The notes: generated by a model from the sequence alone, not told the origin. A stretch of 30,303 nucleotides of DNA from a virus (IMGVR_UViG_2563366964_000009), one strand, 5' to 3'; shown: positions 5,957-30,303, counted from the stretch's first letter. Numbers and translations are program-made.

Positions 5957-6154
5957 ATGAGCAAAAAGGTTATCACGATACAAGTAAGAGGTGGGCACGC
6001 AGGTGCTAAGCCTGTTCGTCGTTCAAAACTTGAACAAAGTGTTAATCGTTCCCTGCGTGCTTCGTTTTCTCTGGAAGGTAATCACATTACCAACACTTCA
6101 TGGTCTAAAATGTCGCAGGCTGCACGTTTTCTGACCAGAGTGGCTGTTGCTTAA
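5957..6154 (+). CDS. Small basic protein carrying a Fic-inhibitory-helix-like motif (candidate FicA-type antitoxin)
   Basis: 65-aa ORF from the ATG at 5957 (GAGAG SD-like upstream); motif S-F-S-L-E-G at 6062-6079 matches [S/T]xxxE[G/N]; its stop overlaps the convergent Fic gene stop in a shared TTAA (6151-6154). Confidence 0.5.
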   Translation: MSKKVITIQVRGGHAGAKPVRRSKLEQSVNRSLRASFSLEGNHITNTSWSKMSQAARFLTRVAVA

Positions 6155-7257
6155 AGCTCTTTGATTGCCCTTGAAATAAGGGCAATCAGATTTCTGTTAC
6201 TGTCGTGTATTGCGCGTCTTACAGCATAATGGTACGCACGTTTATTTCGCACATCTCCATCTAGCTTTTCCATATCAAATTCATAACCCATAGTAGTTGC
6301 AACAATCTGAAGAAATAATCGTATTGAACGACCATTACCATCTTGAAAGGGGTGGATCCATGCGATTTCTGCATGGAGAGTAGCTAGTTTATGAACTAAC
6401 TCTGCTTTAGAATTTATTTTGCTAAGTTCTTTTTTTGTGCAACCTCTAAGACAGGCTTTTAATGATTTTTTGACTTCATTATGTTCCATTGTTGGTCGCT
6501 CTTTATCTCCAACAACAACGGGATGGTTTCTGTATTCACCTGCCCAATCATAAATATGGCCAAAAAGAGCTTTATGGCATTCTAAGATCGTCTTTTCATT
6601 AATTGTTTTATTTTTGTCGGAGACATAGTTTATTATGAGCTGCGTACTTTTGATATATGAAATAACCATTTCGGCAAATTCAACTTGGTATTGATATTTT
6701 GCAAATACTAGATTTTTTGTTGCCATGTATTCATATCTTTCATTTTTCCCGTCACGTAAAAGAAAAATATTGTCTTTTTGGTGCTTTACTTTGATTACAT
6801 GATTGCGTTGAAATGGAAAGTTTTTGTCGTGAGGCAATATGTGAAAATAAGTTTCTTTTTTTAGCTTGTCTACACCAACAATTGAACCAAAAAGAAAAAG
6901 GGCTGCTGTTGTATTAAATAAAACACATACGGAGTCGCCAAGTTGTATCTCTTCGCGACTTAGATCGCATGTTTTTTTCTTATAATTAAATAAATGGGCG
7001 ATAGATGGTATGCTGTGATGATTGCGCAATGAACCTGAGCCACATATGACTTCTTTTGTCCTGCTATTCCAGTAATAATTAATGCTTCTCTTATTCTCTT
7101 GTGTTCTTTTTATATGAACCAACTTGAAGCTAAGTAGGCTTAAAGAGAATTCACCATTCTTTTTGACTATATTAACTTTTTGGTGTTTCATTTTGTTTTT
7201 TTTGTTAGTGTTATTGAAAAATGTTTTGAAGGTATCATGTTTTGAGTAAGAATGCAT
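6151..7257 (-). CDS. Fic/Doc-family protein (predicted AMP-transferase toxin) with an uncharacterised ~200-aa N-terminal domain
   Basis: 368-aa minus-strand ORF; canonical Fic active-site motif HPFQDGNGRSIR preceded by the core block KALFGHIYDWAGEYRN; strongly AT-rich, K/N/I/F/Y-rich N-terminal half. Confidence 0.85.
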   Translation of the reverse strand: MHSYSKHDTFKTFFNNTNKKNKMKHQKVNIVKKNGEFSLSLLSFKLVHIKRTQENKRSINYYWNSRTKEVICGSGSLRNHHSIPSIAHLFNYKKKTCDLSREEIQLGDSVCVLFNTTAALFLFGSIVGVDKLKKETYFHILPHDKNFPFQRNHVIKVKHQKDNIFLLRDGKNERYEYMATKNLVFAKYQYQVEFAEMVISYIKSTQLIINYVSDKNKTINEKTILECHKALFGHIYDWAGEYRNHPVVVGDKERPTMEHNEVKKSLKACLRGCTKKELSKINSKAELVHKLATLHAEIAWIHPFQDGNGRSIRLFLQIVATTMGYEFDMEKLDGDVRNKRAYHYAVRRAIHDSNRNLIALISRAIKEL

Positions 7258-18948: not shown

Positions 18949-19552
18949 TTCGCGACTGCTGCCGACCGGCTCATCACCGCTTGAAGTTGCCGCCGCAAAA
19001 GCCTGTGCGGAAATTGAAAAAACGCCGGTCAGTATTCGTGAACTGTGGAACCCGGATACCTGCCAGGCAAATCTGCTGCCGTGGCTGGCGTGGTCATTTT
19101 CGGTTGACCGCTGGGATGATAAGTGGCCGGAAGCGACAAAACGCGCTGTTATCCGCGATGCGTATTTCATTCACTGTCATAAAGGCACTATAGGTGCAAT
19201 CCGGCGTGTGGTGGAGCCGCTCGGCTATCTGATTGAGGTGAGGGAGTGGTGGCAGCTCAACGAGGAGCCGGGGACGTTCCGTATCGTTGTTGGCGTGCTT
19301 GAGCAGGGTATTACCGAAGAAATGTATCAGGAGCTGGAGCGCCTCGTTGCTGATGCAAAACCGGCGAGCCGCCATCTGACGGGACTGGCTATCAGTTTAA
19401 GTACAACCGGCAACATTTTTGCCGGTGCGGGATGCTATCACGGCGACGCCCTGACGGTTTATCCCTACACCCCGGAGGCCATTATTGTCGGAGGGGATTA
19501 TTTCCCGGCCTCGGCCATTCATTTAATTGATAACCTGAGAGTAAACGCATGA
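18941..19552 (+). CDS. I: Baseplate protein I
   Basis: 203 aa; overlaps the J stop and the H start. Confidence 0.9.
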   Translation: MSDSRLLPTGSSPLEVAAAKACAEIEKTPVSIRELWNPDTCQANLLPWLAWSFSVDRWDDKWPEATKRAVIRDAYFIHCHKGTIGAIRRVVEPLGYLIEVREWWQLNEEPGTFRIVVGVLEQGITEEMYQELERLVADAKPASRHLTGLAISLSTTGNIFAGAGCYHGDALTVYPYTPEAIIVGGDYFPASAIHLIDNLRVNA

Positions 19553-20628
19553 CAGTGAAATACTACGCCATTCTGACTAATCAGGGCGCAGCACGGCTGG
19601 CTAACGCGACGATGCTCGGCAGTAAGCTGAATCTGACGCAAATGGCCGTTGGTGATGCGAATGGTGTCTTGCCGACACCAGACCCGGCACAGACAAAACT
19701 GATTAACCAGAAACGCATCGCGCCGCTGAATCTTCTGAGTGTTGACCCGAACAACCAGAGCCAGATTATTGCGGAGCAAATCATCCCTGAGAACGAGGGC
19801 GGATTCTGGATCCGTGAGATTGGGCTTTATGATGATGAAGGCGTACTCATTGCGGTGGCGAACTGCCCGGAAACGTACAAACCGCAGTTGCAGGAAGGCA
19901 GTGGTCGTACCCAGACTATCCGCATGATTCTGGTTGTCACGAATACCGAAGCTATCACGCTGAAAATCGACCCGTCGGTGGTACTGGCGACCCGTAAATA
20001 CGTGGATGATGAAGTCCTGGAATTAAGGCTGTATGTGGATGACCAGATGAGAAACCACATTGCCGCACAGGATCCTCATACCCAGTATGCGCAGAAACAT
20101 AATCCGACATTTACCGGAGAACCAAAAGCGCCGACGCCTGCCGCAGGAAATAACACCACGCGGATTGCGACCACTGCGTTTGTTCAGGCGGCTATTACCG
20201 CTCTGATTAACGGTGCGCCTGCCACGCTGGATACACTGAAAGAAATTGCCGCAGCCATTAACAATGACCCGAAATTCAGCACTACCATTAACAATGCGCT
20301 GGCAGGTAAACAACCGCTGGACAATACGCTGACTCATTTGAGTGGAAAGGATGTTGCCGGTCTTCTCGCATACCTTGGTTTGGGAGAAGGTGCTCCAGCT
20401 GTTGTGGTCCCGTTCGTTTATCCGACAGCGGCTATGCGAACAACTGCATTCGGCTCGGGATCCGTCATGCTACTTTTGGAATATATCGTGGAGTTTTTCA
20501 CTTCCTCAGATTACACGGCCCTGGTGATAAGGTTTCATTTGCCTGTACTATCTCCAGATCAGGCGAAGTTTTTTCGTAGTGGTAATTATGAGAAAGTTGA
20601 GGCAGGTCGGTGCAATTCAGCAAGCTAG
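19549..20628 (+). CDS. H: Tail fibre protein H: constant N-terminal part fused at the crossover site to an ~80-aa variable C-terminal cassette (current orientation)
   Basis: N-terminal ~270 aa resemble P2 gpH (...NTEAITLKIDPSVVLATRKYVDDE..., ...NNALAGKQP...); the crossover site 20363-20388 lies in frame (LLAYLGLGE); total 359 aa, much shorter than P2 H as recalled. Confidence 0.85.
   Translation: MTVKYYAILTNQGAARLANATMLGSKLNLTQMAVGDANGVLPTPDPAQTKLINQKRIAPLNLLSVDPNNQSQIIAEQIIPENEGGFWIREIGLYDDEGVLIAVANCPETYKPQLQEGSGRTQTIRMILVVTNTEAITLKIDPSVVLATRKYVDDEVLELRLYVDDQMRNHIAAQDPHTQYAQKHNPTFTGEPKAPTPAAGNNTTRIATTAFVQAAITALINGAPATLDTLKEIAAAINNDPKFSTTINNALAGKQPLDNTLTHLSGKDVAGLLAYLGLGEGAPAVVVPFVYPTAAMRTTAFGSGSVMLLLEYIVEFFTSSDYTALVIRFHLPVLSPDQAKFFRSGNYEKVEAGRCNSAS
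20363..20388. repeat. Invertase crossover site (gix/hix/pix-like), left copy
   Basis: TTCTCGCATACCTTGGTTTGGGAGAA, an imperfect 26-bp palindrome; matches the reverse complement of 22185-22210 at 21 of 26 positions, with the right 14 bp identical. Confidence 0.7.
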
Positions 20629-21944
20629 GTTGTGTCTACAAACTTTGCACATATCGGTGAGACAGCATGGGGTGTGGCAGGAAACGATATCTCCTATCAT
20701 GATGGCATCACTGGAATTCCGACAGGACGGTCGCAATGCAAAGTTATCTTTTAAGCGCTGAGAAATGTTGGTTTTTTCGTTTCTAGCTGAAAGCCAAATA
20801 TTGGAATTACGGTGCTGGGCACGGCGATAGAATCAAAATTGTTTTCACTGTTGACGGCGAGTCTACAGAGCCGGCCCCAGAACGAAGATTCTGATATGAT
20901 ACTGACACATTTGAGGATTGGGGCTGGTTTCCTGAATCTATTCATGAGGGCGAAATTGCCGCCGCCTGTCCCACTAGTCATGAATCTATTAATAACATCC
21001 ACGGAAGAGTAACCATAATGCAAGGGCCTGGAAGAACGCCGGTTGGTGGCCAGCGCGATGAGAAAGTTGAGCAATACAATAAGGGTCTGGATTTTCTAGA
21101 GGATTATAAACGTGTCGACACATACGGTGCTCTAACGATTGCATGGTCAACGCCATCGGAAGAACGGGACGGTTGGAATCCGGTGACATGTAGTTAGCTG
21201 TTACCGCCACCCGCTGTATATGATCCAGCAGGACATTAACACTGGCTGATTGTGGCTGCAATAGCTTCCATCAGTCTGATTCATTTAAATTAACAGGCCG
21301 GACGGAAGCCGACGCAGGATGAAACAACGCGTGGTACCGCGGTGCTGCAGCGTATTCACCGGGTGAATGCTACGCCTCCGAATATGGCGCCCAATTTTAT
21401 CTAGCCTGATTTGCGTGTGGCGTTGACCGTTCAATAGCGGGAGAACCGTAATTGATGGCCAGTATATATTCCACTGTATCATCCACCCCCAAATTGTATG
21501 GGTCCACATTCTCACCTCTAAGGTCATCATTAGCGCTCCATCCAGTACCTGGAAATACGGCCATGTTTCCCTGAACGTGTTCAACAAGTTCATGACTATT
21601 CAAACAGGCGGCGACACTTAGGTCCGCATGAGTTTATTCTTGAGACTCAACCCTTGACGGAATTCTGTCAGCAACGCATCTATATTATCGTTCTTCTGCT
21701 TCCATTGTAACTAGCGCATTATCATCAACAACAATTTTCATTACATCGCCCTCACATTAACCTTAATCCCGATATGTCGCGGTATGATCGAAACGGAATA
21801 ACGCCCTTTTCCCGGCGATTTAAATGTATAACTGCATCGTGACAATCCTGGCGGATTTTCGCCGAATCCGTATTGAAAGGAAATAGCGTGGGTTGCCACA
21901 CGGCATGCTTAACTAGTGAAATGATCAAAGTTTGCAGACTAAAC

Positions 21945-22210
21945 CTACCTTAATAATATGCAACCACCATCCGCACCTTTATCGTACACCCCGCTACCAG
22001 AGACATCCGCCTGGTCTTGGGATAGTACAAGGGAGTGTCCACTTTTAGACAGGGCAGAGTAACCTGTGAAAGAGCCATACGCCACATTATATCCCCAAGG
22101 CACCCTAAACCACCCCCAGTCAGAAACGATATTTGCCATTGCCGGGGTCGGACAAAAGACCGGGACCACATCCGTTGTAGCACCTTCTCCCAAACCAACG
22201 TTTATGAAAA
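21945..22210 (-). other. Promoterless alternative tail-fibre C-terminal cassette (would be fused to H after inversion)
   Basis: Minus-strand reading frame through the right crossover site encodes ...GLGEGATTDVVPVFCPTPAM..., homologous to the current H C-terminus (...GLGEGAPAVVVPFVYPTAAM...); stop at 21945-21947. Confidence 0.55.
22185..22210. repeat. Invertase crossover site, right copy (inverted)
   Basis: TTCTCCCAAACCAACGTTTATGAAAA; its reverse complement TTTTCATAAACGTTGGTTTGGGAGAA aligns with the left copy. Confidence 0.7.
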
Positions 22211-22259: not shown

Positions 22260-22859
22260 ATGCTCATGCTTATTGGCTATGTACGCGTGTCAACAAATGA
22301 CCAGAACACGGAATTGCAGCGTAACGCGCTGGAGTGTGCAGGATGTGAGCTGATTTTTGAGGATAAAATCAGCGGTACGAAGTCCGACCGACCGGGACTG
22401 AAAAAACTGCTCAGAACATTATCAGCAGGTGACACTCTGGTAGTCTGGAAGCTGGACCGGCTGGGGCGTAGTATGCGGCATCTGGTCATTCTGGTTGAGG
22501 AGCTGCGCGAACGCGGCGTTAATTTTCGCAGCCTGACAGATGCTATTGATACCAGCACGCCGATGGGGCGTTTTTTCTTTCATGTGATGGGTGCCCTGGC
22601 TGAAATGGAGCGAGAACTCATTGTCGAGCGGACACGCGCCGGACTGGAAGCGGCCAGAGCCAAAGGGCGTATTGGTGGCAGACGTCCGAAGCTCACCGCG
22701 AGTGAGTGGGAACAGGCAGGACGGTTGCTGGCTGCGGGTGAATCACGTCAACGCGTGGCGCTGATTTTTGATATTGGCCTGTCCACGCTCTATAAAAAAT
22801 TCCCCTCATCAGCGGCAAAGAATAAATTGTGTCATCCCTTAGCCAACCGGGACAAATAG
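22260..22859 (+). CDS. Serine recombinase, DNA invertase of the Gin/Hin/Cin/Pin family (start at 22260 or 22266)
   Basis: MLIGYVRVSTNDQNTELQRNAL...GDTLVVWKLDRLGRSMRHL...RFFFHVMGALAEMERELIVERT is a textbook resolvase/invertase catalytic domain (catalytic Ser in YVRVST) with a C-terminal HTH (LSTLYKKF); the ORF-track extension 22035-22259 crosses the crossover site and is not coding for the invertase. Confidence 0.92.
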   Translation: MLMLIGYVRVSTNDQNTELQRNALECAGCELIFEDKISGTKSDRPGLKKLLRTLSAGDTLVVWKLDRLGRSMRHLVILVEELRERGVNFRSLTDAIDTSTPMGRFFFHVMGALAEMERELIVERTRAGLEAARAKGRIGGRRPKLTASEWEQAGRLLAAGESRQRVALIFDIGLSTLYKKFPSSAAKNKLCHPLANRDK

Positions 22860-29221: not shown

Positions 29222-29302
29222 TGTTTTTATTTTATCTGTTTGTTTTATAAGGATAAATTAACTAAAATGGCACCATCAACAAAACCGGAAGAGGTGCTCG
29301 CG

Positions 29303-29521
29303 ATGTTTCATTGTCCTTTATGTCAGCATGCCGCACATGCGCGTACAAGTCGCTATATCACTGACACGACAAAAGAGCGTTATCACCAGTGTCAGAACGT
29401 GAATTGCAGCGCCACGTTCATCACTTATGAGTCGGTACAGCGATACATCGTGAAGCCGGGAGAAGTCCACGCCGTAAGACCGCACCCGTTGCCGTCAGGG
29501 CAGCAAATTATGTGGATGTAA
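29303..29521 (+). CDS. ogr: Late transcription activator Ogr (zinc-finger)
   Basis: 72-aa protein MFHCPLCQHAAHARTSRYITDTTKERYHQCQNVNCSATFITYESV... with a Cys4 zinc finger, matching P2 Ogr as recalled; the ORF-track start at 29240 is a TTG extension. Confidence 0.9.
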   Translation: MFHCPLCQHAAHARTSRYITDTTKERYHQCQNVNCSATFITYESVQRYIVKPGEVHAVRPHPLPSGQQIMWM

Positions 29522-29530
29522 TTACAAACA

Positions 29531-29563
29531 GAAAGCCCCTCAGTCGAGGGGCTTTCTGTTTTG
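29531..29563 (+). terminator. Rho-independent terminator after ogr
   Basis: Hairpin AAAGCCCCTC-AGTC-GAGGGGCTTT followed by CTGTTTT. Confidence 0.65.
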
Positions 29564-29661
29564 GGGAATATTCTTCATTAAAAGTAGTGGATCACGTTTA
29601 ATAAACTATGTTTATCATATACTTAAAAGTCAATCTTTAAAGTTGGACAGGTTGGTGGAAA

Positions 29662-30303
29662 ATGGAAAAAGTTATAATTGAGCTTGATAATCGTTGGGAG
29701 TTAGCTGATTTCGCGGTCTTAACGAAAGAGTATTTGCAGCTATATGGTTTTTTTTATGGCCTAAAAGGAGGATCAAGAGGATATTCAACAATGCCTTGGG
29801 AGGGTGGGCACAGTGTGGTGAATTTTTTTAGAGGGGCTTACAGTGCGACTCCACCAGATTTACGTCCTGTAGTGAAAAAAATTCAGTATGCCTCTCCTGG
29901 CTTTATTGAATTGTCTGCTCTTATTGATATCTCTTGGCAGATTGCTGAGTTAGTTACTGCTGTTGGTGGAAGTATTCTGGCTGCCAACAAAGTTTACGAT
30001 CAGGTGATGCGTACATATCGACAAAGAGAATGGGCAAAGTTGAAATCAGAGAAGCTGCGTATACAGAATCAAATTAAAGAGATTGAACTTGTTTCTGACG
30101 CAGTTAAATCACTTGAATCTGTGATGGCACTTAGTGAAGAACAACGTAAAAACTTGGTTCAACTATCGGGGGCAGATGAACTGGTTCAGTTAAAGATACT
30201 TTTGGCTGTTTACCGACGGTTATCTCCTCTTGTTGAGTTGCAAAACAGCGGGAAAGCTAATTTTTCTGCTGGGAAAAATAAAAATTTAAAAGCGTCCGAT
30301 TAA
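29662..30303 (+). CDS. Hypothetical protein, AT-rich, unknown function (prophage-end moron or host-flank gene)
   Basis: 213-aa ORF with ATG at 29662, a GGTGG SD-like sequence and a candidate -10 TATACT at about 29618-29623; lies behind the ogr terminator; AT-rich relative to the phage late genes; I recognise no motif. Confidence 0.55.
   Translation: MEKVIIELDNRWELADFAVLTKEYLQLYGFFYGLKGGSRGYSTMPWEGGHSVVNFFRGAYSATPPDLRPVVKKIQYASPGFIELSALIDISWQIAELVTAVGGSILAANKVYDQVMRTYRQREWAKLKSEKLRIQNQIKEIELVSDAVKSLESVMALSEEQRKNLVQLSGADELVQLKILLAVYRRLSPLVELQNSGKANFSAGKNKNLKASD

Follow-up and report, generated by a model that had tools for sequence, protein, structure and literature searches.

Evidence for a Gin-type tail-fibre switch, written as a blend of its two orientations, in a P2-like Escherichia coli prophage

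Introduction

Tail-fibre genes that end inside an invertible segment raise a simple question: which fibre tips does the phage make, and does the DNA as recorded encode them? We asked this of a locus in IMGVR_UViG_2563366964_000009, a stretch of 30,303 nucleotides which we call the window. A preliminary description, made from the sequence, had proposed an invertible tail-fibre segment at 20363-22210, flanked by a serine invertase gene and ending on either side in homologous alternative C-termini of gene H. Our analysis leaves little doubt that a P2-like (Peduoviridae) E. coli prophage carries here a standard tail-fibre switch of the Gin family, with an interior written as a blend of its two orientations. 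The interior as written, from 20389 to 22184, is no single molecule's sequence.

Results

The window is a complete P2-like prophage that runs from the integrase (1-1011) to ogr (29240-29521), followed by one more ORF truncated by the window's end. Many Peduovirus genomes and E. coli prophages match it at 96-98% identity. The locus lies between the baseplate and tail genes J-I-H and the sheath gene FI, and comprises the following elements outside the segment's interior:

19549-20388, plus strand: constant 5' part of gene H, 280 codons, through the left crossover site (…LLAYLGLGE)
20363-20388: left 26-bp crossover site, TTCTCGCATACCTTGGTTTGGGAGAA, composed of TTCTCGCATACC-TT-GGTTTGGGAGAA, with the core TT at 20375-20376
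22185-22210: right 26-bp crossover site, TTCTCCCAAACCAACGTTTATGAAAA, composed of TTCTCCCAAACC-AA-CGTTTATGAAAA, with the core AA at 22197-22198
22266-22859, plus strand: Gin-family serine DNA invertase, 197 aa from MLIGY, with an alternative ATG at 22260
22287-22350, plus strand: candidate recombinational enhancer in the 5' end of the invertase gene, with G-N13-C 15-mers at 22287-22301 and 22336-22350, 49 bp apart

The constant part of H contains the N-terminal domain Phage_tail_fib (Pfam, E=1.7e-62) and is 96-99% identical to many P2-like prophages. Megablast matched the flanks of the locus in 2,680 of 5,426 complete E. coli genomes, roughly half; among the matches listed for the phage and E. 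coli collections, no record was at least 99% identical across the flanks. P2 proper realigns with the window only from about 22827, the end of the invertase gene, which places the invertase in the G-Z/fun region. Its proposed position in the Z/fun slot is thereby upheld, and it agrees with a survey according to which this hotspot of P2-like phages often encodes a DNA invertase, with adjacent genes inverting (bioRxiv 10.1101/2024.10.15.618418). While the backbone is that of a P2/pro483-type Peduovirus, the cassette is one annotated in the Gemsvirus 500465-2, a combination that reads, on sequence comparison, as ordinary cassette shuffling.

The invertase gene announced at 22260 proved to be intact, starting at 22260 or 22266 (Pfam Resolvase 2.9e-52, HTH_7 1.1e-12). 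Its product is identical to Mu Gin at 146 of 184 residues (79%) in an ungapped alignment, contains the motif YVRVSTNDQ with the catalytic Ser9, and matches the DNA-binding domain of Hin (1HCR) with E=1e-8. Two features that define the Din family are found here: a serine recombinase of about 190 aa with an N-terminal resolvase domain, a serine near position 9-10 and a C-terminal HTH, and two inverted, imperfectly palindromic 26-bp sites with complementary cores. Din systems also depend on a recombinational enhancer bound by Fis, which is located in cis and usually within the 5' end of the invertase gene. Each of the two candidate 15-mers agrees at 14/15 with the corresponding place in Mu gin, a conservation that coding constraint could also explain. 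By analogy with the hin and gin enhancers, they are candidate Fis sites.

The two crossover sites lie in inverted orientation and match at 21 of 26 positions, as had been noted; all of the inner 14 nt agree, and their cores, the dinucleotides TT and AA, are complementary. The left site is in frame within H, where its translation ends in …LLAYLGLGE, just as first described. An inverted match of 21/26 is on its own only weakly significant: by our estimate, chance would yield about 0.02 such matches within 3.4 kb, and about 1-2 if the entire window is considered. The assignment of the sites is therefore based on two other observations, namely their fit to Mu gixL and gixR (read from NC_000929; 17-18 of 26 positions, same 12-2-12 half-site pattern), in keeping with the gix/hix likeness suggested earlier, and the fact that natural relatives recombine exactly there. 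Exact copies of the left site with its outer flank were present in 7 IMG/VR contigs, and exact copies of the right site with its outer flank, including the start of the invertase gene, in 8. These exact-junction scans of IMG/VR returned other cassettes between the same sites and no identical prophage. The left site is identical to that of 500465-2 (NC_049343), while the right site differs from its counterpart at 2 of 26 positions. A search for more crossover sites within the segment, which a multi-inversion or shufflon-like system would have, gave only a 12-nt partial likeness at 20763-20774 that lacks half-site structure, and we rejected such a system.

Three relatives that have these flanks in common with the window, pro483, E. 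coli strain 64 and 500465-2, share one arrangement: an H tip, two convergent tfa genes, a second H tip and the invertase. One and the same segment, with 99.9% identity over the aligned positions 13-1839, is present in opposite orientations in 500465-2 (L003) and in a prophage of E. coli 503025 (L005). In the 503025 prophage, the invertase and the constant part of H are on swapped sides of the segment, H is fused to a gp53-like tip, and the annotation lists the remaining tip as a pseudogene truncated at its N-terminus. The sites of this prophage, TTTTCTTAAACG-TT-GGTTTGGGAGAA and TTCTCCTAAACC-AA-GGTATGCGAGAA, have their outer half-sites exchanged exactly at the core, so that the two prophages are reciprocal recombinants of each other. 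Since near-identical prophages occur in opposite orientations, this kind of element inverts, and the genome comparison indicates that the present cassette type does so in nature. Both orientations are thus found for the cassette type; for the window's own copy, the 1:1 blend of the two is an indirect indication. In EPEC E2348/69, sequencing and PCR have also demonstrated that inversion variants of P2-like prophages coexist (Goldberg et al. 2014, PMC4272514).

Between the sites, the record departs from these relatives:

20389-22184: interior of the invertible segment as written, a non-physical, ungapped per-base blend of about 50:50; the underlying cassette is about 99% that of 500465-2

We found no ORF of more than 107 codons within 20629-21944, and no tfa gene can be read in the interior as written, though every relative carries two. 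Neither 50,697 phage records nor 5,426 E. coli genomes gave a megablast match to the interior, whereas the flanks match thousands; a 41-mer from the blend was absent from IMG/VR, GTDB genomes and JGI metagenomes. Sensitive blastn aligned the interior with natural tfa regions at about 63% identity in single pieces of equal length. With the 500465-2 segment it aligned ungapped over the full length at 61-62%, and in the same way with the reverse complement of that segment. The whole 1,848-bp segment is moreover about 62.5% identical to its own reverse complement, uniformly and with no gap in the 924 bp from the ends to the centre. The mismatches in this self-comparison comprise 120 transitions and 226 transversions (about 1:2) and lack codon-position bias, even within both apparent ORFs. 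Such a ratio, together with the missing codon periodicity, is unlike natural divergence.

A per-base blend accounts for these properties. We compared the window (W) position by position with the segment of 500465-2 (N) and with its reverse complement, rc(N), over 1,848 nt (20363-22210, both sites included). A 50:50 blend should be identical to each orientation, and to its own reverse complement, at 0.5+0.5×0.25=0.625 of the positions. We observed W=N at 62.2%, W=rc(N) at 62.0% and N=rc(N) at 25.5%. W equals N or rc(N) at 98.9% of the 1,848 positions: 682 match N only, 678 match rc(N) only, 468 are positions where N and rc(N) agree, and 20 fit neither. With both 26-bp sites excluded, 98.94% of the positions are explained and 19 are not. 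We attribute the roughly 1% that fit neither orientation (20 positions) to divergence of the true cassette from that of 500465-2. Other natural copies of the 500465-2-type cassette (L004, L005, L006) explain 98.9-99.0%, the closest exact-junction IMG/VR contigs (L021 and L007) 87% and 79%, and unrelated cassettes between the same sites in other contigs, which served as negative control, 41-49%, which is chance level. Since about a quarter of the positions are uninformative on a given orientation, the blend can be resolved with a reference and not from the window alone.

The choices between N and rc(N) have a mean of 0.501, a runs test gives z=0.33, and lag correlations are close to zero. The choices favour no particular base, and those at mirror positions do not depend on each other. 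Thus, the choices behave as independent fair coin flips. Next to the left site, however, the first eight informative positions (20390-20400) all follow one orientation, which has a probability of 1/256 and may be chance. Simulated 50:50 blends reached an identity of 0.627±0.014 to their own reverse complement, compared to 0.626 observed. The self-complementarity of about 62.5%, the transition to transversion ratio of 1:2 and the absent codon periodicity are all consequences of per-base blending.

Such a string must be the product of computation. Its likeliest source is a column-wise consensus of an approximately 1:1 mixture of orientations, in which ties or two-fold ambiguity codes were resolved at random. 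That the blend is the genuine consensus footprint of a lysogen population holding both orientations at about 1:1 is a reading we entertain tentatively, at somewhat less than an even chance. In a lysogen at inversion equilibrium, both orientations are expected at comparable levels, as for Mu G inversion, and a consensus with two-fold ambiguities is its natural outcome. The coexisting variants in P2-like prophages (PMC4272514) fit the presence of both orientations in one lysogen. The independence of neighbouring choices, however, is not expected from a simple majority consensus of short reads, in which adjacent columns draw on the same reads; an origin in real data therefore requires exact ties or randomly resolved ambiguity codes. 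It is also quite possible, though again short of probable, that a clean record was mixed with its own reverse complement purely in silico, deliberately or by a processing error, in which case the blend would hold no information on a mixed population. Independent, unbiased choices at 0.501 are what a random number generator delivers and are unusual for real pile-ups, and none of the public collections searched (phage, E. coli, IMG/VR, GTDB genomes and JGI metagenomes) contained the blend. We found no positive evidence against such in-silico mixing; what speaks for the lysogen is how naturally an inversion equilibrium yields a two-fold-ambiguous consensus. The conclusion on the locus is the same under either origin.

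The segment could instead be taken as physical DNA, with two homologous alternative C-termini of H of about 80 aa, one at each site. An ORF does extend from each site into the segment, the two are equally long and can be aligned, and the alternative C-terminus that had been read from the right site is one of them. We regard this reading as extremely improbable. The similarity continues ungapped past the stop codons to the exact centre at a uniform level of about 62%, the mismatches show no codon periodicity and about one transition per two transversions, and readable tfa genes, two of which occur in every relative, are missing. Both apparent C-termini are codon-by-codon chimeras of the real tips of 148 and 115 aa. 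Their shared TAG (20626-20628 and 21945-21947) is itself chimeric, combining the TGG of one orientation with the CAG of its opposite. Blends readily produce such pairs: in the simulations, an open frame of at least 88 codons ran from the site in 30% of the trials, and a stop fell at the same mirrored codon in 10%. The homologous C-terminus is hence an artefact, a chimeric reading frame of the blend. Likewise, the similarity of about 75% that had been noted over some 50 bp inside each site is not local and belongs to the self-complementarity of the entire 1,848 bp. When the two segment ends are aligned to each other, as had been suggested as a check, the sites do match, but the likeness beyond them comes from the blend; past the site, the two inner ends of the natural segment show no relationship (N versus rc(N), 25.5%). 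A decayed, pseudogenised real cassette, with substitutions accumulated after the switch became useless in a defective prophage, would be in line with the lack of long ORFs in 20629-21944 and with the identity of only about 62% to natural cassettes, but we consider it no less far-fetched, as decay cannot make 98.9% of the bases equal to a reference or its mirrored reverse complement (unrelated cassettes, the negative control, explain 41-49%), and would leave neither 1.8 kb free of indels nor the adjoining H, invertase and tail genes unharmed, as they are here at 96-99% identity to intact relatives.

Returning to the blend of two orientations, we resolved the cargo by transferring the coordinates of 500465-2 (L003) in ungapped register and in the orientation of that phage; in the window, each of these footprints is overlaid with mirror-image genes:

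20389-20832, plus strand: variable H tip, 148 aa (L003 2196-2639; …GAPAIGVPFFWPSAA…; …GEGAPAIGVPFFWPSAAMPNTV…)
20832-21425, plus strand: tail-fibre assembly gene tfa, 197 aa (L003 2639-3232; Pfam Caudo_TAP E=5e-27)
21397-21837, minus strand: second assembly gene tfa', 146 aa (L003 3204-3644, minus strand; Pfam Caudo_TAP E=3e-33)
21840-22184, minus strand: alternative H tip, 115 aa, with a gp53-like C-terminal domain (L003 3647-3991, minus strand; GEAAKRDVGTGDNQIP…; Pfam Gp53-like_C E=3e-9)

Both resolved orientations extend the frame of H across the site, one with GAPAIGVPFF… for 148 aa and the other with AAKRDVGTGDNQIP… for 115 aa. The locus therefore has what marks a tail-fibre switch: a site in frame, a swap of the C-terminal tip, and a chaperone gene for each tip. 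Stop-codon recoding or a frameshifted tfa, considered for the missing ORFs, is unneeded given the mosaic result. The proposal of an invertible tail-fibre segment is thus borne out by the invertase, the sites, the cassettes of the relatives and the occurrence of both orientations in natural prophages, while the short ORFs cannot be retained as real tips.

Discussion

For this switch, the components and the crossover point are established, and the later steps are drawn from the Gin/Hin family. By analogy, invertase dimers would bind the two inverted 26-bp sites and form an invertasome together with a Fis-bound enhancer in the 5' coding region of the invertase gene. Both sites would be cut at the central 2-bp core, TT/AA, the subunits with their half-sites would rotate by 180 degrees, and the ends would be religated, which would flip the segment of about 1.82 kb. 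The flip is expected to exchange the last part of H, after …LGLGE, and to place the matching assembly chaperone gene behind it. Accordingly arranged, the phage would make either the 148-aa tip with the 197-aa Tfa or the 115-aa gp53-like tip with the 146-aa Tfa, and the alternative tips are predicted to recognise different receptors.

The element is ordinary and its type is already known, as invertases at this P2-like locus and experimentally shown inversion have been published (PMC4272514; bioRxiv 10.1101/2024.10.15.618418). Gin-type tail-fibre switches are common at the H-G/Z-fun locus of P2-like prophages, and we claim no new biology. The practical value lies in quality control. About 1.8 kb of the record is non-physical, and gene calls, proteins and phylogenies derived from 20389-22184 are meaningless; it was the blend that led a reading of the sequence to a pair of homologous fibre tips. 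If the blend stems from real data, the sequenced culture or lysogen had an active switch near equilibrium. If the consensus footprint is true, finished consensus sequences can hold a recoverable record of active DNA inversion; its signature is an ungapped segment that lies between invertase sites and equals its own reverse complement at about 62.5% of positions. One could then look for active switches in public assemblies without reads, and resolve the segments against a close reference, as in the present case.

Small serine invertases of the Din family act on 26-bp sites in several well-known systems, among them Pin on the P segment of e14, Cin on the C segment of P1 and Hin on the H segment of Salmonella. 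Pin, Cin and the invertase of carotovoricin Er switch tail-fibre C-termini, in contrast to Hin, which flips a promoter and not a coding end. Tail-fibre inversion in carotovoricin Er is described by Nguyen et al. 2001, as cited in PMC4272514. We liken the window's system to those of e14, P1 and carotovoricin Er by description, the comparison at sequence level within this group being that with the DNA-binding domain of Hin.

The G segment of Mu provides a closer parallel. It shares with the window the invertase (Gin, 79% over 184 aa, ungapped), 12-2-12 sites and, at 14/15 each, the two 15-mers that are here a candidate enhancer; the enhancer of Mu is known as sis. In both, the constant 5' part of the fibre gene lies outside the segment and two opposed sets of tip and chaperone genes lie inside. 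Mu differs in the length of its segment (3 kb versus 1.8 kb here), in its core dinucleotides (TC/GA versus TT/AA here) and in its tips, which are unrelated cargo; furthermore, the backbone of the window is P2-like and not that of Mu.

The closest systems are those of pro483 (KR073661), 500465-2 (NC_049343) and the P2-like prophages of EPEC E2348/69 (PMC4272514). In pro483 and 500465-2, as in the window, J, I and the constant part of H lie to the left and the invertase to the right. pro483 also shares the sheath gene FI after the invertase. In 500465-2, by contrast, a minus-strand tail protein and a tape-measure gene follow, yet its cassette is about 99% identical to that of the window once the blend, as which the window's interior is written, has been resolved.

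Cassette exchange and segment orientation

Among IMG/VR contigs, L008-L014 and L016-L022 carry the 26-bp crossover sites and flanks of the window around unrelated cassettes in different prophages. These unrelated cassettes explain just 41-49% of the window segment, counting bases equal to the cassette or its reverse complement, while partly related cassettes were found in L007 (79%) and L021 (87%). Evidently, cassettes are swapped as modules between conserved crossover sites.

Opposite segment orientations have been deposited for near-identical prophages, namely phage 500465-2 (L003, 2170-4017) versus the prophage of E. coli 503025 (L005, 2189-4036), both from one common strain collection (India). 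The unfused tip in the inverted prophage of this pair was annotated as a pseudogene with 'missing N-terminus'. This label arises in annotation from the state of the switch.

Of the relatives, E. coli strain 64 (L001) has flanks of the highest similarity (99.4%). The annotation of L001 1550-2749 gives tail-fibre gene H as an incomplete pseudogene with a separate gp53-like ORF after it, and the locus appears disrupted or rearranged in this strain.

Within the window, the per-base mixture of the two orientations reaches the site itself on the right; on the left, the coin-flip pattern begins at 20402. All 8 informative positions closest to the left site (20390-20400) represent one orientation (chance 1/256). 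This run may be due to chance, or may stem from the way in which the blend was produced.

Genes outside the tail cluster

Two further genes were detected by profile searches:

6151-7257, minus strand: Fic/DOC-domain protein, 368 aa (Pfam and PADLOC profile matches)
29662-30303, plus strand, continuing past the window end: ORF matching PADLOC PD-T4-10_B (1.3e-34)

The product of the former matched Fic in Pfam (6.5e-17) and PDC-S04 (2.7e-33) and SoFic (1.8e-13) in PADLOC. For the product of the latter, a Pfam search gave no match, and a search of window positions ~29556-30303 against the phage collection was likewise negative. The Fic/DOC-domain gene occupies the old/tin defence hotspot known from P2-like phages, with the portal gene on one side and replication gene A on the other. 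The other ORF lies 3' of ogr in the third P2 hotspot, adjoining the attachment end.
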